IMG/VR virus record: IMGVR_UViG_2529292720_000001
Direction: 5' to 3' (one strand)
DNA from: a virus
Taxonomy: Monodnaviria > Loebvirae > Hofneiviricota > Faserviricetes > Tubulavirales > Inoviridae
Length of the DNA stretch: 12,088 nt
Shown here: piece after piece, positions 1-10,499 of the stretch
Numbering within the stretch: the first letter of the stretch is position 1
Layout of the letters: the number at the start of each line of letters is the position of its first letter
The notes under the pieces: model-generated
Told to the model about the DNA's origin: nothing
The model's input: the letters and a program-made list of their open reading frames with translations, nothing else
Database searches by the model: none
Made by a program: the position numbers and the translations under genes

Positions 1-1455
1 TTATTGATTCGACTCATATGCACTCCATTCATCGCATACATGGGAAAAGGTTGATTTCAGGGCTTCGTTATCAATCACAATTCGCTGAAGATTGGCCGTA
101 TTAGCCTGCTGAGATAGAAATCTTTTAGCGTAAAGATCAGGCATATGGCTATTGTGACTCCAACCGCCAAGTAGCCGTAATTCATCCTTGGCTTCATCCA
201 TCAATCCAACGATAGAAAAGTCTATGGCTGCCAAGTGTGAGTTGGCCTTAATTTTTTGAAGTTTATCACGATAAATACGTTGAAGTGTTAAATAAGCCCA
301 AGTATGCCGCGTTATATGAGGCGAGATGCTTTCAATGGCATCATAATATTCATCTTTTTTATATTCAGGATACTGCACACTCATAATGTCATCAATACGG
401 GTAAAGATATCATAGACTGCATGGTATGACAGTGGCGGATGTAGTCTTTGGGTGGAAGTGAACAGAAAACTATGGGAGGCTTGAGGGCGGATTTTATGGA
501 TATATATATTTAGAAAATGAAAGTCCAGTTTATCTAATGCCAGCACCCGGTTTGCATAAACATTTTTTAATGAAGGCAATCTTTTTCGTTGATCCGAAAC
601 GTCGTCATCTACTGTGGTCACAATCAGGCTGAACTGATCCCCTCGGAGATTTGGTTTGATCGAATGACACTCCAAAAGCAGTAATTCACTGACACGCAAT
701 CCGTAATTTAAAAGCAATCTGCAAATCAGAAAATTACGTAGCTGGATTTCACCAGCGGGGAAGGGATTGAGTGGGTTTTTCTTTGAAATTGAACCGGGTG
801 TAATGATTTGGTAAAAAGCCATGACCATCTCAGCAGTCAGACTTCGAAAGCGTTTATGGGTCGTGCCATTGTTCATCTGACGAGAATGGGTAAGAGTACG
901 GAATTCTGCCTTATGTATCGATAAACGTCCCGTTAACTGCGTGGCAAGTCGTGTAAGCTCTTTAGGCGTGCCATCTATATATCTCGGCGAGATATACGTG
1001 TTAATCAAATATCTGATAAAACGAATAACCGAATGTACATGCCTGATATTTGTACAACGTTGAGGCGTGGTCTGCGTAGTAGACCTTATGGTTAACGCTG
1101 GTACATATAAATGCGTATTTTCCAGATAATGAAAAAAGGCTGTAAGTTCATCAATGGCAATCAATGGATTGTGGTTCGAGGAATAGAAACTGAAGCAAAA
1201 AGTCACACCATGTTTCTGGTGCCAGAATTCATAGAAAAACTTGAGCGCTTGAAGTGAAGCGGATTGCGTGGCTGATGAACGCAAAGCAAGATGGTCGATA
1301 AGATATATTAACGGATATAAAAGCGGCTGGCGCGTGTGAGTATCCATCAGTGCCCATAAACGCTGCCGTTGGTTGATATTGAGTTGTGTAAGTATGAACA
1401 CGCGGCACTTAACCTTATCAATGGTGTGGATATGAACAAAGTAACCGACAAACAT
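1..1455 (-). CDS. tyrosine recombinase / phage-type integrase (large, ~484-488 aa), start uncertain
   Basis: Long minus-strand ORF ending with TAA at 1-3. The translation carries the tyrosine-recombinase catalytic signature in canonical order: box I Arg (NYGLRVSELLLL), box II H-x-x-R-H (SPHITRHTWAY), then LGGWSHNSHMPDLYAKRF with the putative nucleophile Tyr. The ORF-track start at 1467 is a TTG; the first ATG is at 1453-1455 with GCAGGA 4 nt upstream; another in-frame ATG lies at 1345-1347. The gene lies outside the dif-bounded prophage. Confidence 0.7.
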   Translation of the reverse strand: MFVGYFVHIHTIDKVKCRVFILTQLNINQRQRLWALMDTHTRQPLLYPLIYLIDHLALRSSATQSASLQALKFFYEFWHQKHGVTFCFSFYSSNHNPLIAIDELTAFFHYLENTHLYVPALTIRSTTQTTPQRCTNIRHVHSVIRFIRYLINTYISPRYIDGTPKELTRLATQLTGRLSIHKAEFRTLTHSRQMNNGTTHKRFRSLTAEMVMAFYQIITPGSISKKNPLNPFPAGEIQLRNFLICRLLLNYGLRVSELLLLECHSIKPNLRGDQFSLIVTTVDDDVSDQRKRLPSLKNVYANRVLALDKLDFHFLNIYIHKIRPQASHSFLFTSTQRLHPPLSYHAVYDIFTRIDDIMSVQYPEYKKDEYYDAIESISPHITRHTWAYLTLQRIYRDKLQKIKANSHLAAIDFSIVGLMDEAKDELRLLGGWSHNSHMPDLYAKRFLSQQANTANLQRIVIDNEALKSTFSHVCDEWSAYESNQ

Positions 1456-1546
1456 AACGTCCTGCAAGAAGAAGATAGAGGGGTAGGTAAGTGTATGATT
1501 AATCGTATCCTGTGGCCGGTTATGAACTAAATGACCGACGGACTAA

Positions 1547-1574
1547 ATTTAACATAATATACATTATGCGCACC
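1547..1574 (-). other. dif: chromosomal dif site (XerC/XerD recombination site), exact 28-bp consensus
   Basis: The plus strand reads ATTTAACATAATATACATTATGCGCACC; its reverse complement is GGTGCGCATAA-TGTATA-TTATGTTAAAT, i.e. XerC arm, 6-bp central region and XerD arm of E. coli dif as I recall it, with no mismatch. Confidence 0.9.
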
Positions 1575-1785
1575 AATGGTAAGGATGGCAGAAACTGGTT
1601 GGAATCGTTGACACTGGGCGTCGACTGGTTACTATCGGCAATGATTCAAAATCATCCGTTTCTCCAAACGAATCAGAATCGAATGTCTGTCAACAGTAAG
1701 TGAACAAGCCTAACCTCATGACCTCACCAATCAGGCCTGTTCATCATCGTTACTAAGCAATGAATTACAGAAGGCATGAGCATTT

Positions 1786-2031
1786 ATGGACTTATCATAT
1801 CTAGCTGAAATGACGATATCAGAGGAAACACAGTTCTTGACTGTTTTTGAGCAGCAACTAGAACATGATGTCGGTGAAGCAGCCCGAGCCTGTCTTCTTC
1901 GTGGCGTCCCTATTTATTACGCTGAAAAAAATACGCCAGAAGGATGTGTCATTAAAGAGTATCCCGATGGTCGCAAGAAGCTGGTTAGTTTTATGACTGG
2001 CACTGAAAAAGTAGTTAAGATTAAAGTCTGA
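1786..2031 (+). CDS. hypothetical small acidic protein (81 aa)
   Basis: ORF-track ORF with ATG start. The Shine-Dalgarno is weak (AAGG about 11 nt upstream). The protein has no TM segment and no motif I recognise. It lies just inside the left att end of the prophage, convergent with the 82-aa ORF. Confidence 0.35.
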   Translation: MDLSYLAEMTISEETQFLTVFEQQLEHDVGEAARACLLRGVPIYYAEKNTPEGCVIKEYPDGRKKLVSFMTGTEKVVKIKV

Positions 2032-2181
2032 TACTTCCCTAGCCGCGCCGCAATTAACTCCAAAGAAAAATAGAGTACTGTTGCGGCTTGGCCAACGCCA
2101 GACAGCAACAAAAACAAGTTTTGTTACTGCCCGGCGTTTACGATAATTCCGTCAGCATGGAGTTTTAGCGGCTAAAAATGT

Positions 2182-2430
2182 TCACCACCACCATGCAAAC
2201 GGCTTGTTGCTGACCGGAAATGCGATGCCGTCAGCGTCACGACCACGTACAACCTGATTGAGAAGCTTTCTGACTTCACGGCGCTCTGGCCGGGTCATCA
2301 TCATATTGCGATACCAGGACGGCGATTTATCAAACCATCTGGCACAACTGGCAAAATGTGAACCTACACGACGATAAGACTTAAGGCGGCCACTGGGAAG
2401 TCGGTCACGCGCCTTATTTTTTACAGACAT
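2182..2430 (-). CDS. hypothetical small basic protein (82 aa, Arg/Lys-rich, C-terminal WWW)
   Basis: Minus-strand ORF with a good SD (AGAGGA, 6-nt spacer, ATG at 2430), located 88 nt downstream of the secretin gene in the same orientation. It is strongly basic (many R/K), consistent with a nucleic-acid-binding protein. Local GC looks higher than the rest of the prophage (eyeball estimate about 52%). Confidence 0.5.
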   Translation of the reverse strand: MSVKNKARDRLPSGRLKSYRRVGSHFASCARWFDKSPSWYRNMMMTRPERREVRKLLNQVVRGRDADGIAFPVSNKPFAWWW

Positions 2431-2518
2431 AATAAATCCTCTAAGTAACTGAATACCTAGAAGATGTCGTACTGTTCATACCCCATTAAAGTTAACGCCA
2501 TAATAAAAATCCATACAA

Positions 2519-3763
2519 TCAGTTCAGGTTGTCCCGGAACAGTTCACCGCTCCTCGCGGCGCTGCGGGGCGTCGCCCTGCTCCGGTCAACCTTTCTGACC
2601 TGAAGCATCACCATAATATCAGTCTTGTTGCTTTCACTGGTACGGGAACCGAAGACGCTCCAGCCGGAACTGGCCTTACTGTCTTTCTGTTCAGCAAGGC
2701 CACCAAGCAAAATAATATCACCATCTGCAAGGCTGACTTCGGTTGTTACATCACGCTTGATAAGGGTTGGCGAGTTATTGACGCCGGTTTCAGTGGTCAC
2801 AAAGTTGGAAAGCTGCTGCTGAATCTTGAGATCCATTGTCCGACTTTTGATTGATGGCGTCACGTTAAATAAAACACCGCTGGAACGATATTCAACGGAT
2901 TGCGTGGTCGTATTGTTATTCACCGTAACACTGCCCAGTACTGGCACATCAGAGCCGACTGAAAAAGACGCTGAGGCATTATTTTTTACCCGTAGTCGTG
3001 GCGCACTGACAACAGTAAAACGACTGTCGGTTTTCAGCAGATTGAAAATGGCATCAATGGAGCCGGTTCGAATATTGATAAAATTATCCAGTCCGGCAGC
3101 ACCTACTGAAATATTGAATTTATCAGACAAGATTTTAGCCGCTAAAAGAATACCGGAGCCGTCAGACTGCGAGGTCTGAACCTCAAAAACATAACCAGAA
3201 ACAACCACTTCATCACTCATCGTATCCAGCGAAGTGACCAGTGTTTTCAGGATGGCGATGTCCTCTTTCGTACCATAATAAACCAGAATATCACCGGTTC
3301 GATTGATGTAGTTGCTTGCCCCTGATGAACCTTTTAGCGAATCGTCAGAAATCACGGCTCCACTGTTATTGAAGGAGCCTGAAACGTAGCCGCCAAGAAT
3401 ATCAGACAGGTAGGCAACAGAACGGTACTGAGGCGTATAAGTCCATGTATAACGTGGCTTAACCGGCTCTTTCGGCGTATAGGGCGCGATAAAATCAACA
3501 CCCTTTTTCGTCCATATTCGAATGTTCATATTGCCAAGATAACGGGTTACAAATTCCCGTTCATCAATATCAGGTGTTAACCTGAATGTAATCATTCGTT
3601 CATCATTAACAAGCTGTGGATCTAGCATATACGGGACTTTAAGCACCTCACTATAAATAAGAGAAATAGCCTCCGGTAGCTTGACTTTATTTAATTCAAG
3701 CTCTGACCCTGCGAAAGCACATGAAGAAAATAGTAGCGTTAATGCGAGTAAAATCTTTTTCAT
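2519..3763 (-). CDS. filamentous phage pIV-like secretin (outer membrane export channel)
   Basis: 414 aa with an N-terminal signal peptide (MKKILLALTLLFSSCAFAG). The C-terminal half has the secretin-domain character (VVSAPRLRVKNNASASFSVGSDVPV...GGLAEQKDSK). Its ATG overlaps the stop of the upstream Zot-like gene (TAATG at 3761-3765), and it occupies the last position of the morphogenesis operon as gene IV does in Ff phages. Confidence 0.85.
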   Translation of the reverse strand: MKKILLALTLLFSSCAFAGSELELNKVKLPEAISLIYSEVLKVPYMLDPQLVNDERMITFRLTPDIDEREFVTRYLGNMNIRIWTKKGVDFIAPYTPKEPVKPRYTWTYTPQYRSVAYLSDILGGYVSGSFNNSGAVISDDSLKGSSGASNYINRTGDILVYYGTKEDIAILKTLVTSLDTMSDEVVVSGYVFEVQTSQSDGSGILLAAKILSDKFNISVGAAGLDNFINIRTGSIDAIFNLLKTDSRFTVVSAPRLRVKNNASASFSVGSDVPVLGSVTVNNNTTTQSVEYRSSGVLFNVTPSIKSRTMDLKIQQQLSNFVTTETGVNNSPTLIKRDVTTEVSLADGDIILLGGLAEQKDSKASSGWSVFGSRTSESNKTDIMVMLQVRKVDRSRATPRSAARSGELFRDNLN

Positions 3764-4788
3764 TATTTTTTCCCCGTATAAAGCGTCACACGCTCACCAT
3801 CAATAATTCCGCTCATCAACATCCCTTTATAATTAAAACTGGATGCAGGAACGGCACGCAAAACACCGGCACCGTTAACAAGAATCACAAACGCCCTGCC
3901 TTCACTGGTCATTCTCCCTGATATACGCCACTCGGTTGAAAGTGACGGTTCAGCTGGTTCTGAGGGAGTATCTGGTGCAGGAGTAGCAGCGGAAGAACGA
4001 AACATGGCCGCATCACGTACATCTGTTGTAGCCAAATCTGGCGAGGGATCGCTTCGGCCAAACGTGCTGAAAAATGAGTAAATCAGCCAGCCTGACCCGA
4101 TAAACATCAATGGAAAAAGCACAAGAAAGAACCTGACTTTGCCAGAATTCCAGATGCTCTGGCGTTTATCTGTCTGCTTTTCATTACCGTTATTTCCTTC
4201 ATAGCTTTTATAAAGTTCAAAAATATCAGGGTTATATTTATTGCGATAACTGGTGACGAGGTTGCTTTTATAGATTTTGTGGCCTGAATATACGTCAATG
4301 CAGTAATGATTATTCAGGCCCAACGCTTTCAGCTTGCGCATCCGGTAAGTTGTTTCTATTTTGTCTTTCAGAAAGCGAGCAATATTAGAAAGTGACTGAT
4401 TTACAATAACCAAATCACAGCTAATACCCGTTTCAGGGTGCGTAAAATGACGATGTTCAGCAATAAATGATTTCTTCTCAGCCGTCATATCCTTATCGCT
4501 ACCGAAGATTCGCCATGCTTCATCAATAACAATTAAATCACCAAACTGGCAAAAGCTCCCTTCCCCACCTTTAAAAGGAAAGAAATCTGCTTTAAGTACA
4601 TCATCATTATCCACAACAATAATTTCTCCCGTTGCATCAGGATAACGTTCGGTGATTTTATCTTTTTGTAAACCATAAATGTTCGTCACAACTCTCCGGC
4701 CGCTGGTAAATGCAGGAATAATGACATTGCAAACGGCTTCATAACTTTTTCCTGAGCCGGGTATGCCAATATATGCAGAAATAGCCAT
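3763..4788 (-). CDS. Zot-like / pI-like phage assembly ATPase
   Basis: 341 aa with an N-terminal Walker A motif (MAISAYIGIPGSGKSYEAV), comparable to the M13 pI N-terminus (GKLGSGKT), and a Walker B-like LIVIDEAW. A central TM segment (FFLVLFPLMFIGSGWLIYSFF) is followed by a Pro/Ser/Thr-rich C-terminal region. It sits between the pVI-like gene and the secretin gene. Confidence 0.9.
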   Translation of the reverse strand: MAISAYIGIPGSGKSYEAVCNVIIPAFTSGRRVVTNIYGLQKDKITERYPDATGEIIVVDNDDVLKADFFPFKGGEGSFCQFGDLIVIDEAWRIFGSDKDMTAEKKSFIAEHRHFTHPETGISCDLVIVNQSLSNIARFLKDKIETTYRMRKLKALGLNNHYCIDVYSGHKIYKSNLVTSYRNKYNPDIFELYKSYEGNNGNEKQTDKRQSIWNSGKVRFFLVLFPLMFIGSGWLIYSFFSTFGRSDPSPDLATTDVRDAAMFRSSAATPAPDTPSEPAEPSLSTEWRISGRMTSEGRAFVILVNGAGVLRAVPASSFNYKGMLMSGIIDGERVTLYTGKK

Positions 4789-4791
4789 AAC

Positions 4792-5079
4792 TCACCCTAT
4801 AACAGGAATACGTCGAATAATAAAACGAGTAGCCATTGAGGAGATAATCATACTAATCCCCTGTGGTAATTTACTCAGGTTAATGAAGTACCAGAATCCG
4901 TCTGATAAATTGGCAAACAGCGATGAGAGATTGCTTGAATCTGGCAGTAACTCAACAAGGATTTCAACGAAGCCCTGGACTACAAAATACAGCGCAAAGA
5001 ATACGAAGAATTTAATAATCAATGACCGGAATACAAAACCTAACAAAGTATTTAATGCACTAATCAGAATCCCAAACAT
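4792..5079 (-). CDS. pVI-like minor coat protein (small hydrophobic virion protein)
   Basis: 95 aa, very hydrophobic with multiple TM-like segments, placed between the pIII-like gene and the pI gene with 3-nt and 12-nt gaps. This position and size class match gene VI of Ff phages. Confidence 0.6.
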   Translation of the reverse strand: MFGILISALNTLLGFVFRSLIIKFFVFFALYFVVQGFVEILVELLPDSSNLSSLFANLSDGFWYFINLSKLPQGISMIISSMATRFIIRRIPVIG

Positions 5080-5091
5080 AGTTGCACTCCT

Positions 5092-6804
5092 TTAGGCACT
5101 CAGAATAATACGGAGCGCAACAAATCCCCATATAATCAGAAATATGGTTTCTACGGCGCTTCTGTTCTGCTCAATTAACGGACAATGGGAGTCAATTCTG
5201 TACTGGTGATTAAACACGCTGAATTCAACAACGGGGCAGGATGCTGAACGAGAGCCGATGTTAAATTCGTTTGTAAAAGGCAACAAGTTAATAATTGGCG
5301 TTAAAATATCTCTTGCCGTTGGCGTTTCTTCAAGCTCAGGCTCTTTTACACCGGGATCTTCTCCCAAATCTATATTGCCATTATTTCCAGTGTCAGATCC
5401 TGAGTTGTTATTAATGGTAATATCAATATTGACGTCAGCCCCTGCACTGTCAGATACAGGTGAAAGCATATCTAATAACGTTGGAGATAGCCTAAGTTCC
5501 GACATCGCAGAAGTTACTTCAGCCGGTGAAACCTCTTTAAACGGTAAGCCGTTATAATCGGCATTAACGGCAGCTTCAGACCACAGCTCGTTAATCATGT
5601 CGGCAAGAAGTGCTGGCGATACACTAACACTATCAAGATACTCCAGATAATCAATCATGGACTCAATATTTCCGGCCTCCAGTACTTCCGTCATGGCTTT
5701 ATATTTGGTATTGGTCCAGATAGTAAGCTCACTCTTTTCATCAATATCTTTTGCGGTGTAATCCTCTTTTTCAGGAACGGCGCAAATCGTCGAATATCCA
5801 CCATTTGACTGATTAGTCGTTTTACAAGGCGTGTTGTGATACTGATATTGCTTTCCTGCTGTTAAATAAGCAACGCTGTAATACATGGGAAGCCCTGCTA
5901 CATTTTCATACATGGGAATACCTGCGGGAAATGAAGATGCGGCCGGGTTGCTATACAAGTGTGTAATCTCAGGTATTTCATAAAATGAGGAAGGATAAGT
6001 AAACTTATAATTCTGTTCAGTAAAGGATACATCTCCATTACTGTTGACAACTTTATTCGTCACAGTGCGTTCAAAATTCGTTAGTGTTTCAGTATAAGTA
6101 CGCGAGTTATAGTCATTAAGATAATTTCTGGCAATTTCAGTTGGATTATCACCATAGTAATAAATTAGCTCTTTCGAATCCTGATAATAATAAAGCGCAT
6201 TATCTGGCGTGGAATATCCTGTTTCAACACCTACAACTGGAGAACCCGCATCCACATTATTACGACTAACATGAAGGATTACCGGACTTAATTCCTGTGG
6301 TTCAAAATTAACGGTTATCGTCTTACTTTCACCACTTTGACCACTGTACGTTACTTCATATAAATTATCGGAAATCTTTTTACCGTTAGTCATTACCATT
6401 ACCGAGCCGTCAGATGAACTCAAAGAAGACGGAACAAAAGATGATACAGCAGCAGCAATACCCGCCCACGTTGCAACACCGCTCATTTTGTATGATGAGG
6501 CAGCAGGCAAGTATTCGGCAGCATTAGCCGCAGCGCGGCCAACAAAAACACGGGTTGCTGTAAGCTGTGATGCCGTATAAATCGCATCATTGGCAGCAAA
6601 GCGACGAACAAGCACCCGGCCAACGACTTTAGGAATAACAGCCCGCGCAGCCACTGCTGCAATTGCTGGTACAAATGAATATGAATATCGGGGAAAGGAA
6701 ACCCAGAGAAAGGAAAAAATAAAGGAATAAACCGTCAGCCTCTTAGCCCAAGAATAACGACATAAGCTGAGACGATCCCCCATAAAAGGGAACCCAATTT
6801 CCAT
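5092..6804 (-). CDS. pIII-like adsorption / minor coat protein (start uncertain)
   Basis: 570-aa ORF directly after the major coat gene and its terminator. It has a Gly/Asn/Ser/Asp-rich linker (NNNSGSDTGNNGNIDLGEDPG) and a C-terminal hydrophobic anchor (AVETIFLIIWGFVALRIILSA), as pIII has. There is an SD (GGAG, 8-nt spacer) before the ATG at 6804. The first ~110 aa are Ala/Val-rich and atypical, so the true start or N-terminal domain organisation is uncertain. Confidence 0.7.
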   Translation of the reverse strand: MEIGFPFMGDRLSLCRYSWAKRLTVYSFIFSFLWVSFPRYSYSFVPAIAAVAARAVIPKVVGRVLVRRFAANDAIYTASQLTATRVFVGRAAANAAEYLPAASSYKMSGVATWAGIAAAVSSFVPSSLSSSDGSVMVMTNGKKISDNLYEVTYSGQSGESKTITVNFEPQELSPVILHVSRNNVDAGSPVVGVETGYSTPDNALYYYQDSKELIYYYGDNPTEIARNYLNDYNSRTYTETLTNFERTVTNKVVNSNGDVSFTEQNYKFTYPSSFYEIPEITHLYSNPAASSFPAGIPMYENVAGLPMYYSVAYLTAGKQYQYHNTPCKTTNQSNGGYSTICAVPEKEDYTAKDIDEKSELTIWTNTKYKAMTEVLEAGNIESMIDYLEYLDSVSVSPALLADMINELWSEAAVNADYNGLPFKEVSPAEVTSAMSELRLSPTLLDMLSPVSDSAGADVNIDITINNNSGSDTGNNGNIDLGEDPGVKEPELEETPTARDILTPIINLLPFTNEFNIGSRSASCPVVEFSVFNHQYRIDSHCPLIEQNRSAVETIFLIIWGFVALRIILSA

Positions 6805-6827
6805 AATTCAATCTCCATAATAACCTC

Positions 6828-6855
6828 AAGTAAAACGGGCGATATTGCATCGCCC
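6828..6855 (-). terminator. intrinsic terminator after the major coat protein gene
   Basis: On the minus strand a 7-bp GC-rich stem (GGGCGAT/ATCGCCC, plus 6837-6855) with a 5-nt loop is followed by GUUUUA. It lies 14 nt downstream of the coat gene stop, analogous to the terminator after gene VIII in Ff phages. Confidence 0.55.
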
Positions 6856-6868
6856 ATGAATAATGAAT

Positions 6869-7102
6869 TTATGCGGATTTAACGGTACGCAATACCCAGC
6901 GAACGCCAGCGACACCGGCATAAAGTGTTACCAGTGAAGCAGCAACGGCCATAATCGCAACCAGAACTGTACTGAAATCAATGCTGTTCGTCAGCGGCGA
7001 TAAATCAACACCACTTGATGCCGCTCCTTCTGCAGCGAAAGTCGCGCCAGAAACAGCCATTAATGCAGGTACAGCCAGAAAACTAACGATTTTTTTAAAC
7101 AT
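6869..7102 (-). CDS. major coat protein (pVIII-like)
   Basis: 77 aa. Signal peptide MFKKIVSFLAVPALMAVSGATFA with an A-x-A cleavage site; the predicted mature protein begins AEGAASSG (M13 mature pVIII begins AEGDDP). It has an amphipathic N-terminus, a hydrophobic helix and a basic C-terminus (RWVLRTVKSA). SD is GGAG with an 8-nt spacer. Confidence 0.85.
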   Translation of the reverse strand: MFKKIVSFLAVPALMAVSGATFAAEGAASSGVDLSPLTNSIDFSTVLVAIMAVAASLVTLYAGVAGVRWVLRTVKSA

Positions 7103-7136
7103 AACTCTATCTCCATTACATTTTAAAGGTTCGCAT

Positions 7137-7388
7137 TCAAGCAGTACGAACCATCTTTATTACCTGTCCCACACCTACAGAAAAAAGCCAGAGCAGCAGG
7201 ACAGAGCCAAAACCTAATGTCCAGTAATTTCCTATTGCAGAATAATCAATTTGATGAAATGGTTCAGAACGTACCATTATTGCCTGACATTCTTTTGCAT
7301 TGTTCGCATTACATAAATAACCTTCAATACGGTAACCATTTTCAGGAATATGATTATCAAACTGAATATCGAAACCTGATGTATCCAT
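7137..7388 (-). CDS. small membrane protein in the pVII/pIX position (possible minor coat protein)
   Basis: 83-aa ORF tightly packed between the ssb-like and major coat genes (2-nt gap upstream), with a C-terminal hydrophobic segment (WTLGFGSVLLLWLFSVGVGQVI). It is larger than Ff pVII/pIX, and an internal Met start is possible. Confidence 0.45.
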   Translation of the reverse strand: MDTSGFDIQFDNHIPENGYRIEGYLCNANNAKECQAIMVRSEPFHQIDYSAIGNYWTLGFGSVLLLWLFSVGVGQVIKMVRTA

Positions 7389-7390
7389 AA

Positions 7391-7708
7391 TCAGCCTTTT
7401 ATTTCAGTAATGCCGCCATCTGATGAAATGTTATAAGTTACTCCTTCCCTCCCCTCCATTGACCAGACGCGAACATATACAGGTATCTGGACTAACTTAC
7501 CGATAAAATTATTTGCCTGATTCATTACACCGGCATTAACAAGAGCCTGAGATACACGAATAATAATCTGGTCTTGCTTAGTGCCACCAAAACCATCAGG
7601 AATCTCTAAGCCAACACCAATTTCATTATAGTATCCCTGACCATTGACCTTATTACGCTGGCGAGCACCAAGCATTTTACCTTTTACAAAAAGACCATAA
7701 TTAGACAT
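7391..7708 (-). CDS. ssDNA-binding protein (pV-like), putative
   Basis: 105-aa ORF immediately downstream of rep with a strong SD (AAGGAGAG, ATG at 7708). Position and size fit gene V; no sequence motif I can name with certainty. Confidence 0.5.
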   Translation of the reverse strand: MSNYGLFVKGKMLGARQRNKVNGQGYYNEIGVGLEIPDGFGGTKQDQIIIRVSQALVNAGVMNQANNFIGKLVQIPVYVRVWSMEGREGVTYNISSDGGITEIKG

Positions 7709-7719
7709 ATCACTCTCCT

Positions 7720-8772
7720 TTAATGCCAGTTACTGGCATGTGAAATACGGTTATAATCGAAAATTAAACCTTTCTCATAAACCCATGATGGAATTTTGGC
7801 TGGTTTGGCTTCAAGAGTACGAACCAACGGAACAACGTTATTAGAATCCGGTGACTCACAATAAAAGTTAATATCTATTCCGAAAGAAAGTAATTCTTTA
7901 CGGTGTCGGTAGAATGTAGGTTTCGGTAACATCTCTTTCATGTTCGCGCCCTGCTTCCACAATAAATATGTAGACTGTATTTTTCTTGGGAGATTAATTA
8001 TTTTTTCATCAGTTAATATGGTATTTTGATTCATTTCTATTCTCCCTACATAGTCAGAGAATAATTTATTGGGCGTCTCAATATTCCAGCTATTACCAAG
8101 CGTAAGATTCAAATCAATTAATTCAGTTGTTCTTAATGTTAATTCAATGCGTAATTTATCTTTTGACCAGTCCAGTAAACCAGCTTTAACGAATTCGTCT
8201 GCCATCTGGTGCCCTTTTTTGCCAGATGTATGCTCATCATATTTTGAATAAAATTTCAGGCTCCAACGACGGGAGTTTTTCCCTAAGTAAACAGTGCCAC
8301 CTTTACCACAGGCGCGACCGTGGCGAGTTTTAGCTTTAAATTCTGCGGCATATAGCCATGCGCGGACATTTTCTAATGTTGACAATGAATACATATAGTT
8401 GATATCAATACGCGAGATCTTAAATTGCCCTGCCATTACCTGTCGATAGGATGAAAGATCATGAGGAATATGCAGTAATGCCAATATTCTGGCATAAGCT
8501 GTTAATACTAACCCTTGCAAATCATCGGAACCGATAACAGAGTGACCTTGCAAAAACTTTGACGGATTGCCGTCAATATAGAGATGTGTTGCCCGACCTT
8601 CGCCATCAGATCCAACAGATCTTACTTTCATAGTGGATTCATACGAACCGCGAACAGTCAACCGTTTTACTGTTTCCCACTCCACTGCACCGTCAGCATC
8701 AACGCTGACGACACTACCAGCCGGTAATGGTCGGTGTATGCAAGGTAGGATCCCGGTAAACCAGTCAATCAT
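7720..8772 (-). CDS. rolling-circle replication initiation protein (pII / RstA-like, phage CRI family)
   Basis: 350 aa with the N-terminal MIDWFTG motif typical of filamentous-phage replication initiators. SD is GAGG with a 6-nt spacer. It is the first gene of the minus-strand operon and is divergent from the HTH repressor, as rstA/rstR are in CTXphi-like phages. Confidence 0.8.
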   Translation of the reverse strand: MIDWFTGILPCIHRPLPAGSVVSVDADGAVEWETVKRLTVRGSYESTMKVRSVGSDGEGRATHLYIDGNPSKFLQGHSVIGSDDLQGLVLTAYARILALLHIPHDLSSYRQVMAGQFKISRIDINYMYSLSTLENVRAWLYAAEFKAKTRHGRACGKGGTVYLGKNSRRWSLKFYSKYDEHTSGKKGHQMADEFVKAGLLDWSKDKLRIELTLRTTELIDLNLTLGNSWNIETPNKLFSDYVGRIEMNQNTILTDEKIINLPRKIQSTYLLWKQGANMKEMLPKPTFYRHRKELLSFGIDINFYCESPDSNNVVPLVRTLEAKPAKIPSWVYEKGLIFDYNRISHASNWH

Positions 8773-8939
8773 GTATCGCCTCAGAGAACAATTTTGTGAC
8801 CAGAAAGCCTGTCAAGAGCTTATTAGTACCAATTCAGTCACACAAATGTACAACCCAAGATCTTACCTCTCAAGTGATTTTGTACTGGATAAGTGACATA
8901 TTTGTTCTTTTGAAATGGAGCAAAAAAGTAGGATATAGA
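8773..8939. promoter_or_regulatory. divergent control region between rep and repressor (candidate promoters/operators, possibly replication origin)
   Basis: 167-bp intergenic region. On the minus strand there is a perfect -35 hexamer TTGACA (plus 8810-8815), about 40 nt upstream of the rep ATG, with only a weak -10 candidate. GTGAC/GTCAC half-sites recur (TGTGAC at 8795-8800, GTCACA at 8837-8842, GTGACA at 8893-8898), and TTTGT(G/A)AC-like motifs recur at about 8792, 8846 and 8878. Confidence 0.45.
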
Positions 8940-9392
8940 ATGAGCAACAACTTCAACAGTAATGGCTACCCGGAAGAAATGGCAGAAGACATAGACTTAC
9001 AGCGGGCAGAAAGGATAAAAAAAGCGATCCTAAGCAAATTCACATACGAAAGGATGGAAGAACTGTCTGGCATCAACATTGGCACACTGAAACGGATCGC
9101 AAACGCACAGAGGGATGCGAAAATCAGTGAGCTGGAAAAAATTGCTGAAATCACTCAGACAGACATATTTGAACTGATTTTTGGCTCCAGTAGCAGTGAT
9201 ATCTACGATTCCAGCAAACGCTTCTTTGAGACGAGAAGTAAAGATGCGGCTCAGGCGGCTCAATTCATCATCTACAATCTTCGTACCCTTGATGATGAGG
9301 ACATCCTTTGTTTGGGGAGGGTTTCGAGTGCCTTGCAAACAGCAACAACATCAAGAAAATGGGATGAGCTTTTCGGGAAGAAGAAAGGCTGA
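8940..9392 (+). CDS. XRE-family helix-turn-helix transcriptional regulator (phage repressor candidate)
   Basis: ATG at 8940 preceded by AGGA (6-7 nt spacer); the ORF-track start at 8796 is an unsupported upstream extension. 150 aa with a predicted HTH (MEELSGINIGTLKRIANAQRDAKISELEKIAEITQTDIFEL). Divergent from rep. Confidence 0.75.
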   Translation: MSNNFNSNGYPEEMAEDIDLQRAERIKKAILSKFTYERMEELSGINIGTLKRIANAQRDAKISELEKIAEITQTDIFELIFGSSSSDIYDSSKRFFETRSKDAAQAAQFIIYNLRTLDDEDILCLGRVSSALQTATTSRKWDELFGKKKG

Positions 9393-9438
9393 GTCTCAGA
9401 AATGAGACAAACGTGCAGTATTACCAACACTGCACGTT
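9393..9438 (+). repeat. two adjacent stem-loops right after the repressor stop (6-bp GTCTCA/TGAGAC hairpin, then a perfect 10-bp inverted repeat AACGTGCAGT-N9-ACTGCACGTT)
   Basis: Read directly from the sequence (9393-9408 and 9410-9438). No immediate U-tract follows; ATTTTT lies about 13 nt downstream. It could be a terminator or attenuator, or a phage cis element. Confidence 0.5.
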
Positions 9439-9476
9439 CTGGATTGAGCGATTTTTAAACACCAGAAAAAGGGTAA

Positions 9477-9875
9477 ATGATGAACAAAACAGTGTATGTA
9501 CCAAGCTACTTCCAGCCTATCTACAAAGAAGTAACCATCAAAGTTCCTACCGGAAACACAAAACGATTCCTGGGTCTCATCGACATTGAAGAAAAAATCC
9601 GAAAAAGAGAAGTTATTCAGGATGGCTGGTCTGATTGCCAGATTGACGGGGAAAGACTCAATGAAGATGTTGGTCGAGCCATTAATAAACTTAATCGGGA
9701 AGGGTATGAGGTTATTTCAATAACCCCTGCTACCTCAGGAAGCTGGGCTTATAAATATAAACAAAACAGTATTCGTAATGGAAACGGTGATGGCAGTTAT
9801 GGATATGGTTACGGTTATTCATACACCGAAGGCGTTATGATTCTGGCAAAGAAAATTGAGAAAGAGGACGTCTGA
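9477..9875 (+). CDS. hypothetical soluble protein (131-132 aa) with a Gly/Tyr-rich low-complexity insert; first gene of the accessory operon
   Basis: ORF with tandem ATGs at 9477 and 9480; AAGGG lies 3 and 6 nt upstream, so 9480 is the more likely start. It contains NGNGDGSYGYGYGYSYTEG. The 60-nt sample counted just downstream (9878-9937, start of the next gene) is about 33% GC. The stop is 2 nt before the next gene start. Confidence 0.6.
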   Translation: MMNKTVYVPSYFQPIYKEVTIKVPTGNTKRFLGLIDIEEKIRKREVIQDGWSDCQIDGERLNEDVGRAINKLNREGYEVISITPATSGSWAYKYKQNSIRNGNGDGSYGYGYGYSYTEGVMILAKKIEKEDV

Positions 9876-9877
9876 TA

Positions 9878-10240
9878 ATGGATTTTATCCGTAAAACTTT
9901 GGGTGGATTAAAAGCAAGTTATTATATCCGTCACTTCGTTTTTGGTGCATTAATTTCAACTTTCTTTATTTACATGTCAATGCAAAATCCTGGAGGGGTG
10001 AAGGTTGAAAATATAATTTTCTTTTTTATCAATGCGTTACTCTACCCTTACGCAAGGTTTGTATATGAGCAAATCATTGGGTTCATCATGGGTGAAAATG
10101 TCTTTTTCATCAACGTCATAGTGATGCTAACTGCCAAGATAATTACGATGTGTTTATGCTGGATATTTTCAGTATTCATAGCGCCAGTTGGACTGATATA
10201 TCTCTACTATTATCATTCAAAAGCTGATAAACAATTATAG
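9878..10240 (+). CDS. hypothetical small integral membrane protein (120 aa, 3-4 predicted TM helices)
   Basis: Translationally coupled to the upstream ORF (TGATAATG). Hydrophobic stretches: IRHFVFGALISTFFIYMSM, NIIFFFINALLYPYARFVY, VFFINVIVMLTAKIITMCLCWIFSVFIAPVGLIYLYYY. AT-rich. Confidence 0.6.
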   Translation: MDFIRKTLGGLKASYYIRHFVFGALISTFFIYMSMQNPGGVKVENIIFFFINALLYPYARFVYEQIIGFIMGENVFFINVIVMLTAKIITMCLCWIFSVFIAPVGLIYLYYYHSKADKQL

Positions 10241-10251
10241 AGGAAAATAAT

Positions 10252-10320
10252 ATGAGCATGGAAACAGGGGTTGCTATTATTATCTTGCTTGTGATTGTTG
10301 GTAAACTTATAGGACTTTAA
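10252..10320 (+). CDS. candidate 22-aa hydrophobic micropeptide (MSMETGVAIIILLVIVGKLIGL), not in the ORF track
   Basis: ATG at 10252 preceded by AGGAAA with a 7-nt spacer, starting 12 nt after the stop of the membrane-protein gene. It encodes a single TM helix and has a TAA stop at 10318-10320. The bidirectional terminator follows about 40 nt downstream. Confidence 0.35.
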   Translation: MSMETGVAIIILLVIVGKLIGL

Positions 10321-10353
10321 CATAAAACTGGTTCGCACAATGACGTTATGTGT

Positions 10354-10394
10354 AAAAAGGCCGCTGCGGGAGACATTTTAGCAGCGACCTTTTC
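10354..10394. terminator. bidirectional intrinsic terminator between the prophage plus-strand operon and hipA
   Basis: 9-bp stem GGCCGCTGC / GCAGCGACC (10359-10367 and 10381-10389) with a 13-nt loop. On the minus-strand RNA every position pairs (one G-U wobble) and UUUUU follows (plus AAAAA at 10354-10358). On the plus-strand RNA there is one C-A mismatch, followed by UUUU (10390-10393). Confidence 0.6.
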
Positions 10395-10395
10395 A

Positions 10396-10423
10396 ACATA
10401 ACGAGTCGTACATTATGCGCACC
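10396..10423 (-). other. hybrid dif-like site (prophage-chromosome junction; XerC arm intact, central region and XerD side phage-derived)
   Basis: The minus strand reads GGTGCGCATAA-TGTACGACTCGTTATGT. The XerC arm is identical to dif and the central region shares its first 4 bp, but the XerD arm is replaced. A XerD-arm-like TTATGTTGAAA (8/11 match to TTATGTTAAAT) is displaced by 5 bp, giving an ~11-bp spacer. Confidence 0.8.
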
Positions 10424-10499
10424 AGTGTAAACCAAGGAAGAATCCAGTCGTTGGCGGTCATGATTGTCGTGCTCATTAACAACGACCAAACCCCATATC

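Follow-up and report, generated by a model that had tools for sequence, protein, structure and literature searches.

Two small, mutually independent genes at the att-proximal end of a CUS-1/Ypf-phi-like filamentous prophage of Escherichia coli

What is encoded between the last recognisable morphogenesis gene of a filamentous phage and its attachment (att) end, and do the genes found there act together? The question is raised by the IMG/VR record IMGVR_UViG_2529292720_000001 (Inoviridae), a stretch of 12,088 nucleotides (the window) which is E. coli chromosome near dif and hipBA carrying a filamentous prophage like CUS-1 and Ypf-phi. Between the secretin gene and the left att end of this prophage lie two small open reading frames (ORFs), called here the acidic and the basic ORF. 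A sequence-only reading of the window had placed them at the end where CTX-phi carries its toxin cargo. This is supported by a review of Ypf-phi, which describes two ORFs without function at this place, where CTX-phi carries ctxAB (PMC4266046). The analysis favours, at somewhat better than even confidence, two independent genes: the acidic ORF would be cargo, an orphan antidote gene, and the basic ORF a conserved module whose translation is predicted to be gated, perhaps coding for a nucleic-acid-binding modulator.

Two convergent genes and their independent distributions

The ORF list confirmed two small convergent ORFs, the acidic at 1786..2031 (plus strand, 81 aa, ATG start) and the basic at 2182..2430 (minus strand, 82 aa, ATG start), separated by a spacer of 150 bp. 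The left att end lies next to them as had been read: an intact chromosomal E. coli dif (XerCD) was found at 1547..1574 on the minus strand as an exact 28-bp match to GGTGCGCATAATGTATATTATGTTAAAT, and forms the left prophage boundary. The good Shine-Dalgarno (SD) sequence described for the basic ORF is present (AGAGGA, 6 nt ahead of the ATG), and its product is indeed highly basic with an isoelectric point (pI) of 11.5 (19 K+R, 6 D+E). The 81-aa product lies on the acidic side of neutral but only mildly so (pI 5.1; 13 D+E, 10 K+R). The basic ORF is also richer in GC than the backbone: it has 51.4% (48% at third codon positions) where the prophage as a whole has 41.6%, a level shared by the acidic ORF (41.5%).

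The length of the ORFs is uninformative, as 33% of the shuffles of 1575-2518 yield an ORF of at least 81 aa. Both were accepted as real genes because they are conserved. Full-length homologues were found across genera with identities of up to 66% (basic) and 53% (acidic). The pairwise ratio of nonsynonymous to synonymous substitution rates (dN/dS) was 0.09-0.28 for the basic and 0.12-0.34 for the acidic ORF, and it stayed in this range for pairs whose synonymous sites are saturated. Both ORFs are therefore conserved and under purifying selection. The RefSeq entries (WP_000366203.1 and WP_001388362.1) are both hypothetical proteins. The scans of Pfam, NCBIfam, PHROGs and PADLOC gave no match to an inovirus core family for either ORF, in accordance with the first impression that they do not resemble core phage proteins.

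The same reading had proposed that both ORFs are candidate moron genes, possibly a DNA-binding factor and its partner. On this model the two would be cargo acting together, the basic ORF as the factor and the acidic one as the partner, possibly in the manner of a toxin-antitoxin pair. The ORFs are adjacent, convergent and of opposite charge, which suits such a pair, and they travel together between two phage backbones. The second backbone is a mosaic inovirus of strain LSN03 (NZ_CP035884; locus L003, 8001-16923). Two blocks are common to it and the window: replication/repressor, with pII 97.7% identical, and the att-proximal part from dif to just before the secretin stop (1547-2502, 92.5% nucleotide identity). 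Its morphogenesis module is unrelated to that of the window and has DUF5455, a different Zot, secretin and attachment protein. The common transfer of the ORFs is explained by this sharing of the whole att-proximal and replication block while the morphogenesis genes differ. The wider distributions of the two ORFs are independent, and the idea of a factor with its partner is hence not supported. The basic ORF was found in 116 E. coli genomes, and about 100 of these 116 are without the inovirus-type acidic ORF. The Xenorhabdus and Morganella phages pair the basic ORF with other genes. The conserved neighbour of the acidic family elsewhere, on plasmids, integrative and conjugative elements (ICEs) and chromosomes, is a zeta-toxin-family kinase gene and never the basic ORF. 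The partnership is largely refuted by this distribution and is regarded as very improbable.

The acidic ORF and its kinase-linked relatives

The acidic ORF occupies a variable cargo slot at 1746..2041. In the alignment of the window, UTI89 and LSN03, homology stops at about 1745 and restarts at about 2042. The slot of CUS-1/UTI89 holds in its place an unrelated 65-aa ORF on the opposite strand, which has a Y. pestis homologue and for which a homology search gave no function. The slot region was found at 95% identity or more in about 17 of 5,426 complete E. coli genomes and at 60-80% identity in 86; the inovirus version of the acidic ORF is thus present in about 17 (about 15%) of the 116 genomes carrying the basic ORF. 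The earlier description of both ORFs as candidate morons is upheld for the acidic ORF by this swapping and patchy presence, and fails for the basic ORF, which is kept in all relatives examined. The acidic ORF has a promoter-like site, a sigma-70-like sequence at 1608-1635 on the plus strand (TTGACA-16-TACTAT, 10/12), and downstream hairpins, yet its GC content is that of the backbone. The idea that the slot is a pdif module was also considered, and no dif-like site with 9 or fewer mismatches was found flanking it.

Other phages have differing small ORFs in the slot that separates the basic ORF from dif (L005 10515-11302; L004 10439-10573; L002 10170-10367). In Morganella the slot contains an 86-aa ORF, convergent and bearing a YPDG hairpin motif, and a 65-aa ORF with a weak match to an 'addiction module antidote' family (PF21716, E = 0.0098). 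The 86-aa ORF was considered as a distant relative of the acidic ORF and rejected (hhalign probability 7%). The N-termini of the Xenorhabdus (44 aa) and CUS-1 (65 aa) slot ORFs resemble those of Xre-type antitoxins. There are hints, unproven, that the slot often collects antidote-like genes.

The homologues of the acidic ORF form 20 clusters at 53-78% identity. The conserved core GVPIYYAE.NTPEGCVIKEYPDGRK.LVSFMTGTEK is unbroken in the phage copy. The profile scans matched only phrog_21003, over the full length and of unknown function. The PDB sequence search gave weak matches to the CPAP/TCP10 beta-hairpin repeats; these are due to the YPDG motif and were dismissed as no homology. The gene order around the homologues was more informative. 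Among 12 non-inovirus loci from genomes and metagenomes, with Salmonella diarizonae, Anaerobiospirillum, Erwinia, Brenneria and Azospirillum among the hosts, a zeta-like gene begins 0-15 bp past the homologue stop in nine (L008, L010, L014, L015 and L017-L021; one is a remnant and two are apparently interrupted). The partner kinase clears the Pfam gathering cut-offs for Zeta_toxin (34.4 bits, cut-off 22.3) and AAA_33 (30.7, cut-off 27). The copies of 60-80% identity in E. coli lie on IncP-like plasmids of about 40 kb and on an ICE at guaA. On the IncP-like plasmids the pair lies in the interval from kleE to trfB/korA, where the small gene has 83 codons and overlaps the start of the 196-codon kinase gene; RefSeq annotates the two on pYDC107_41 and pMTY18780-4 as 'hypothetical protein' followed by 'zeta toxin family protein'. 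The kinase of pYDC107_41 is WP_019842075.1, and its cognate small protein is WP_000061334.1. A small gene that directly precedes and overlaps a kinase gene is a layout typical of a type II toxin-antitoxin operon. The acidic ORF is read as an orphan antitoxin-like gene because its homologues sit directly upstream of this kinase gene of about 195 codons.

The acidic family was found on 84 plasmid records from Escherichia, Zymomonas, Salmonella, Ralstonia, Burkholderia and others. The kinase gene was found in 30 of the 5,426 E. coli genomes, in all cases on a plasmid, and orphan copies of the acidic family on the guaA-adjacent ICE were found in about 56. Since the kinase is present in only 30 genomes, orphan genes in the antidote position (ICE and inovirus together) outnumber complete pairs in E. 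coli. The ICE orphans (L045 5021-5686; L012 10001-10666) adjoin a gene for an EexN-family entry-exclusion lipoprotein at the integrase end of the conjugative element. The window copy is likewise an orphan, since no toxin gene or remnant follows it in 2032-2181. The nucleotide homology to the plasmid pair stops about 7 nt past the acidic stop codon (about 2038), at the would-be toxin start.

These observations suggest that the acidic ORF is cargo, an orphan antitoxin-like moron. The phage may have captured the antidote-position gene alone, cut precisely at the start of the toxin. The acidic protein would then bind and neutralise the zeta-family kinases of co-resident plasmids and ICEs. A cell carrying the phage would thereby be protected from post-segregational killing or from toxin-based abortive responses, the gene acting as an anti-addiction or counter-defence moron. 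Orphan antitoxin-like counter-defence genes are documented in phages (PMC11825919).

Several points weigh against this. The SD sequence of the acidic ORF is the weaker of the two (GAAGG, 11 nt upstream). The acidic protein resembles neither Epsilon, a three-helix bundle, nor PezA in sequence or predicted fold: no Pfam match was obtained, and the AlphaFold2 (AF2) model, of low confidence (mean predicted local distance difference test score, pLDDT, 67), is alpha/beta and not a helix bundle. The literature searched held no experiment in which this small-protein family neutralises short zeta-like kinases, nor any experimental work on the toxicity or neutralisation of the short-zeta subfamily, so that the word antitoxin is applied here from gene order alone. 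The 30 listed toxin-bearing strains also share none with the eight listed prophage strains; an overlap of only about 0.1 was to be expected, so that this result carries little weight in either direction.

The same lack of toxin co-occurrence among the listed strains, the weak SD sequence, the missing toxin gene or remnant and the rarity of the gene (about 17 of 5,426 genomes) would also be seen if the acidic ORF were a functionless relic, left drifting after a toxin-antitoxin module was captured and its toxin lost. A relic is less in accordance with the state of the gene, which every inovirus copy seen carries intact and at full length, with an unchanged conserved core. The dN/dS between the two phage backbones is 0.34, a value that rests on 9 substitutions only. 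Homology ends exactly where the toxin would start, and not at a ragged deletion. The orphan copies on the ICE were kept independently, as is expected if a lone antidote is useful. The relic explanation is thus considered unlikely, and the orphan antidote is retained as the preferred reading of the acidic ORF.

The basic ORF, its leader and its wider family

The basic ORF follows the secretin gene (2519..3763, minus strand; Pfam Secretin 2.5e-24, PHROG 1012 assembly protein IV 3e-137), which is its upstream neighbour and the end of the recognisable morphogenesis genes. Its homologues, which belong to a family marked by the motifs RPxRR...KPHxYYW, form 32 clusters, nearly all of about 82 aa, from Salmonella, Pantoea, Brenneria, Xenorhabdus, Morganella and Pectobacterium (Enterobacterales). 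The loci examined comprised two E. coli morphogenesis backbones, the Xenorhabdus and Morganella phages and IMG/VR loci (21 fetched). In every locus with enough flanking sequence the gene is the first after the secretin gene, on the same strand and 0.5-2 kb before dif. It accompanies three replication protein families, namely II/X, Phage_GPA (Xenorhabdus) and Rep_trans (Morganella). Its amino acid identity is 72-76% where that of Zot is 43% and that of the secretin is 46-50% or undetectable. In the 116 E. coli genomes it is always full length and typically present in two copies, which fits tandem prophages. The UTI89 (CUS-1) copy, WP_001399975.1, occupies the same position with 90% identity, and this protein is also encoded by a circular CUS-1-like genome of 9.5 kb. 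The basic ORF is therefore a fixed, conserved last gene on the phage coding strand and not variable cargo.

No promoter-like site was found on the strand of the basic ORF, and the gene is probably co-transcribed with the secretin gene. Its leader of about 55 nt (2431..2486, minus strand) is conserved from about -56 in eight phages, and the sequence farther upstream is diverged. The leader carries an anti-SD hairpin with a stem at 2436-2465, in which CTTCTAGGTA pairs over 12 bp with the SD-containing TACTTAGAGG, and an outer helix extends over the first codons. RNAfold paired the SD sequence in all eight phages. In the main helix 98% of the cells across the eight phages are paired, compared to 40-52% in slid controls. 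The hairpin is predicted to occlude the ribosome-binding site; the pairing data are no proof of structure. Since the conserved hairpin pairs both the SD sequence and the first codons, translation of the basic ORF is predicted to be gated and low.

Past the basic ORF the spacer at 2042..2181 (minus strand) is conserved and structured and contains the inverted repeats I1, I2 and I5, with a nested set at 2042-2138. Its fold on the packaged-sense strand has -31.6 kcal/mol (z = -4.6). A hairpin with a 20-bp stem at 2094-2138 (minus strand), a candidate terminator or packaging signal, is retained in E. coli-type relatives. In the Ff phages the packaging signal follows gene IV. The nested inverted repeats could be a packaging signal or a bidirectional terminator.

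The basic protein has an Arg/Lys-rich N-terminal arm, a C-terminal domain of about 50 aa with RPxRR and an aromatic C-terminal tip, and neither a signal peptide nor a membrane segment; its character is that of a cytoplasmic protein. A profile search of 1.84 billion representative proteins revealed a much wider family: 137 clusters, whose proteins have 50-146 aa, were matched at E<1e-3. The C-terminal domain of the family reads P-x-W-W ... T-R-P-x-R-R ... G-x-D-x-D ... [FW]-P ... K-P-H-x-Y-Y-W at the very C-terminus. The aromatic-rich C-terminal tripeptide is found in 125 of 129 members (YYW in 83), RPxRR lies 36-37 residues from the C-terminus, and the median pI of the family is 10.4. A tblastn search of 50,697 deposited phage genomes gave one match, an unannotated 3.6-kb record. 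Members occur on viral contigs of 30-260 kb near genes annotated as HNH endonuclease, terminase, protease and tail genes. An association with tail genes was considered and dropped, as the large neighbouring ORFs have no Pfam domains and the 'tail protein' PHROG matches cover short stretches only. Further members were found in a Methylobacterium integrative element with HTH_17 genes, in Zobellella beside a tyrosine integrase, and in the accessory region of IncFIB Salmonella plasmids. On the Fluoribacter gormanii chromosome (L099/L100 9179-10249), in a region with many effector-like genes, a distant member immediately follows a RelE/HTH_3 toxin-antitoxin-like pair. For two other distant members the contigs were shorter than 1 kb and showed no gene context. 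The presence of the family on inoviruses, tailed-phage contigs, plasmids and integrative elements indicates a general accessory gene of mobile elements, which argues against both a virion role and a dif-specific, XafT-like role.

These two roles were weighed on further evidence. A virion structural or assembly component, that is a lineage-specific inovirus core gene, would explain why the basic ORF is the last co-directional gene after pI and pIV and has no recognisable promoter of its own, and morphogenesis genes are over-represented around the distant relatives on tailed-phage contigs. On the other side, the basic protein lacks the signal peptide or membrane segment of the coat and assembly proteins known from inoviruses; the family is missing from the inoviruses among the deposited phage genomes, where the single record was matched, and occurs on plasmids and chromosomal islands without virion genes. 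The divergence, lower than that of Zot and secretin, is a better fit to a conserved host or nucleic-acid target. A part in the virion is accordingly held to be improbable.

A recombination accessory factor acting at dif, either a Xer activation or directionality factor like XafT or an excisionase-like protein, would account for a place always within 0.5-2 kb of dif or the att end (0.6 kb in the window) and for a small and very basic product, as directionality factors are. The distant relatives beside the Zobellella integrase and in the Methylobacterium element point in the same direction, and XafT-type genes are terminal in Vibrio inoviruses (PMC12715192, PMC6744903). Against it, the Pfam scans showed neither DUF3653 nor a helix-turn-helix (HTH) domain, whether in the window protein (cut-off E<1) or in 74 family members (E<0.01). 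The phage attachment site (attP) here folds as a forked hairpin of the CTX type, its XerC arm being good, and attP of the CTX-phi type is known to integrate with host factors only. The family also occurs near the HNH/terminase and tail/protease genes of the large phage contigs and on the IncFIB plasmid, where dif recombination is irrelevant. There is little likelihood that the basic protein is such a factor.

The slower divergence compared to Zot and secretin suggests a conserved host or nucleic-acid target for the basic protein. It may be a nucleic-acid-binding modulator of such a target, made at a low level and not a part of the virion; this assignment is of low confidence. Several findings weigh against it. 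The AF2 model of the basic protein is poor (pLDDT 58), and nucleic-acid binding is consequently judged from composition only. The sequence, fold and family-wide scans, including sequence and fold searches of the PDB, gave no fold or profile match. The GC excess of the ORF could stem from horizontal origin, and no double compensatory changes were found in the leader hairpin among the eight phages. The profile scans of the window protein in the four databases gave sub-threshold matches only; those to phrog_12343 (7e-4) and PADLOC JetB (6e-4) were treated as noise. A scan of 74 family members found no Pfam, NCBIfam or PADLOC model and marginal PHROGs matches only.

A bolder reading takes the basic family as a new functional class, for example a tightly dosed host-targeting factor (anti-defence, growth modulator, nucleoid- or RNA-binding), and the acidic ORF as the first filamentous-phage orphan antidote against a zeta-kinase toxin. 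It is possible but doubtful. The preferred reading of an orphan-antidote cargo gene beside a conserved module predicted to be gated splits the att-proximal end of the inovirus into a conserved module, the basic ORF, and a swappable slot. The slot gene gains a concrete and testable role as antidote to a plasmid zeta-family toxin; if this is true, filamentous prophages take part in the conflicts between mobile elements. The basic ORF is a gene already known but uncharacterised, and it proves to belong to a large family that has no name in the libraries searched. This conserved gene is not confined to phages, and none of Pfam, NCBIfam and PADLOC has a model for it, PHROGs giving marginal matches only. 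It represents the enterobacterial end of a family that comprises at least 137 clusters and many kinds of mobile elements, and this makes it a tractable subject for giving a recurrent 'hypothetical protein' a function. The mechanisms suggested for both ORFs are inferred, and the current understanding is not overturned by these findings.

Prophage setting and comparison with known systems

The prophage spans about 1575-10395, as dif at the left and a hybrid dif-like site at 10396-10423, whose XerC arm is perfect and whose XerD arm is degenerate, bound the inovirus DNA. The dif stretch of 28-33 bp also occurs on its own in many E. coli genomes. The right prophage end (10296..10430, minus strand) comprises the hybrid site and an inverted second site. 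The DNA fold has -30.2 kcal/mol (z = -6.2), and on the packaged (minus) strand a long forked hairpin forms between 10396-10423 and a second, inverted XerC/XerD-like site at a distance of about 50 nt. The dif-proximal phage DNA at 1575..1745 is non-coding and conserved (identity 87% with UTI89 and 92% with LSN03). It contains a hairpin at 1701-1711/1733-1743 (inverted repeat I4, from the inverted-repeat search), and its structure overall is no greater than that of shuffles (z = -0.16). The Rfam scan of the window gave no RNA family.

The genes on the minus strand, from right to left, code for a II/X-family replication protein (7720-8772), a single-stranded DNA-binding protein (7391-7708), small coat proteins, a pIII-like protein, a DUF2523 pVI-like protein, Zot/pI (3763-4788) and the secretin (pIV). 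The relatives of the phage are CUS-1 of UTI89 and NC101 by sequence comparison and Ypf-phi of Y. pestis by literature (PMC4266046). Among cultured phages, blastn found nothing similar to the region. The record NZ_CP128883.1 (E. coli TUM14759), a circle of 9,565 bp deposited as an 'untypable plasmid', is a complete CUS-1-like inovirus genome and presumably the replicative form of the phage. As it holds the basic ORF and the neighbouring slot ORF, the att-proximal end belongs to the phage.

The region 1400-2600 of the window is 100% identical to E. coli O114:H49 90-9280. In this strain (NZ_CP024240; locus L001, 18321-23655) the block of truncated single-stranded DNA-binding gene, replication gene and repressor is present in three tandem, RS1-like copies; the window has one. 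Outside the prophage, at 1-1467, a tyrosine-recombinase-like gene of 488 codons ends about 80 bp from dif. In 90-9280 (L001 9560-12002) it adjoins a second integrase pseudogene, a ThiF/HesA-family gene, restriction and HNH endonucleases and insertion sequence elements. The dif-proximal part of this gene is common to many E. coli genomes. The locus could be another dif-adjacent island. At the opposite prophage end, 9477-10240 holds a 132-aa ORF (phrog_15841, weak DUF4177) and a 120-aa membrane-like ORF, both without an assigned function, which differ from the UTI89 ORFs at the same position. In the circular phage they share the strand of the acidic ORF, with attP in between.

Among known systems the nearest are YPO2280a/YPO2281 of Ypf-phi and their CUS-1 homologues, which are in the same place as the window pair, being two small ORFs between secretin and att end. 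They were described as ORFs without predictable function (PMC4266046). The basic ORF is by position of the YPO2280a type, an assignment made from position and the published 99% identity of CUS-1 and Ypf-phi; the YPO2281-type ORF is replaced in the window by the unrelated and oppositely oriented acidic ORF. The forked hairpin of the right end is like the CTX-phi-type single-stranded attP proposed for Ypf-phi.

The homologues of the acidic ORF hold the epsilon position of the epsilon/zeta and PezAT systems, directly upstream of and overlapping a gene for a P-loop kinase of the Zeta_toxin family, often in plasmid stability regions. The kinase adjoining them is short, at about 195 aa, while PezT and zeta have 253-287 aa, and the toxin gene is absent from the window. 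The antidote half alone is likewise found in orphan antitoxin-like phage genes, such as those of T4-like phages against DarTG1 (PMC11825919), and in chromosomal anti-addiction modules. The carrier here is a non-lytic filamentous prophage, and the presumed target is a zeta-family kinase.

XafT/DUF3653 of TLC-phi (PMC6744903) is, like the basic ORF product, a small protein encoded near dif in an element exploiting XerCD. The basic ORF differs in having no DUF3653 or HTH, in the type of attP, and in a family that is not limited to dif-integrating elements. The cargo end of Xer-dependent inoviruses, with ctxAB in CTX-phi and the pHVRs between zot and xafT in Vibrio (PMC12715192), is likewise a variable att-proximal slot downstream of the assembly genes. 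Compared to the Vibrio pHVRs, the slot of the window is tiny (about 0.3 kb, one ORF) and is bounded by the basic-ORF module and dif-proximal DNA, not by xafT.

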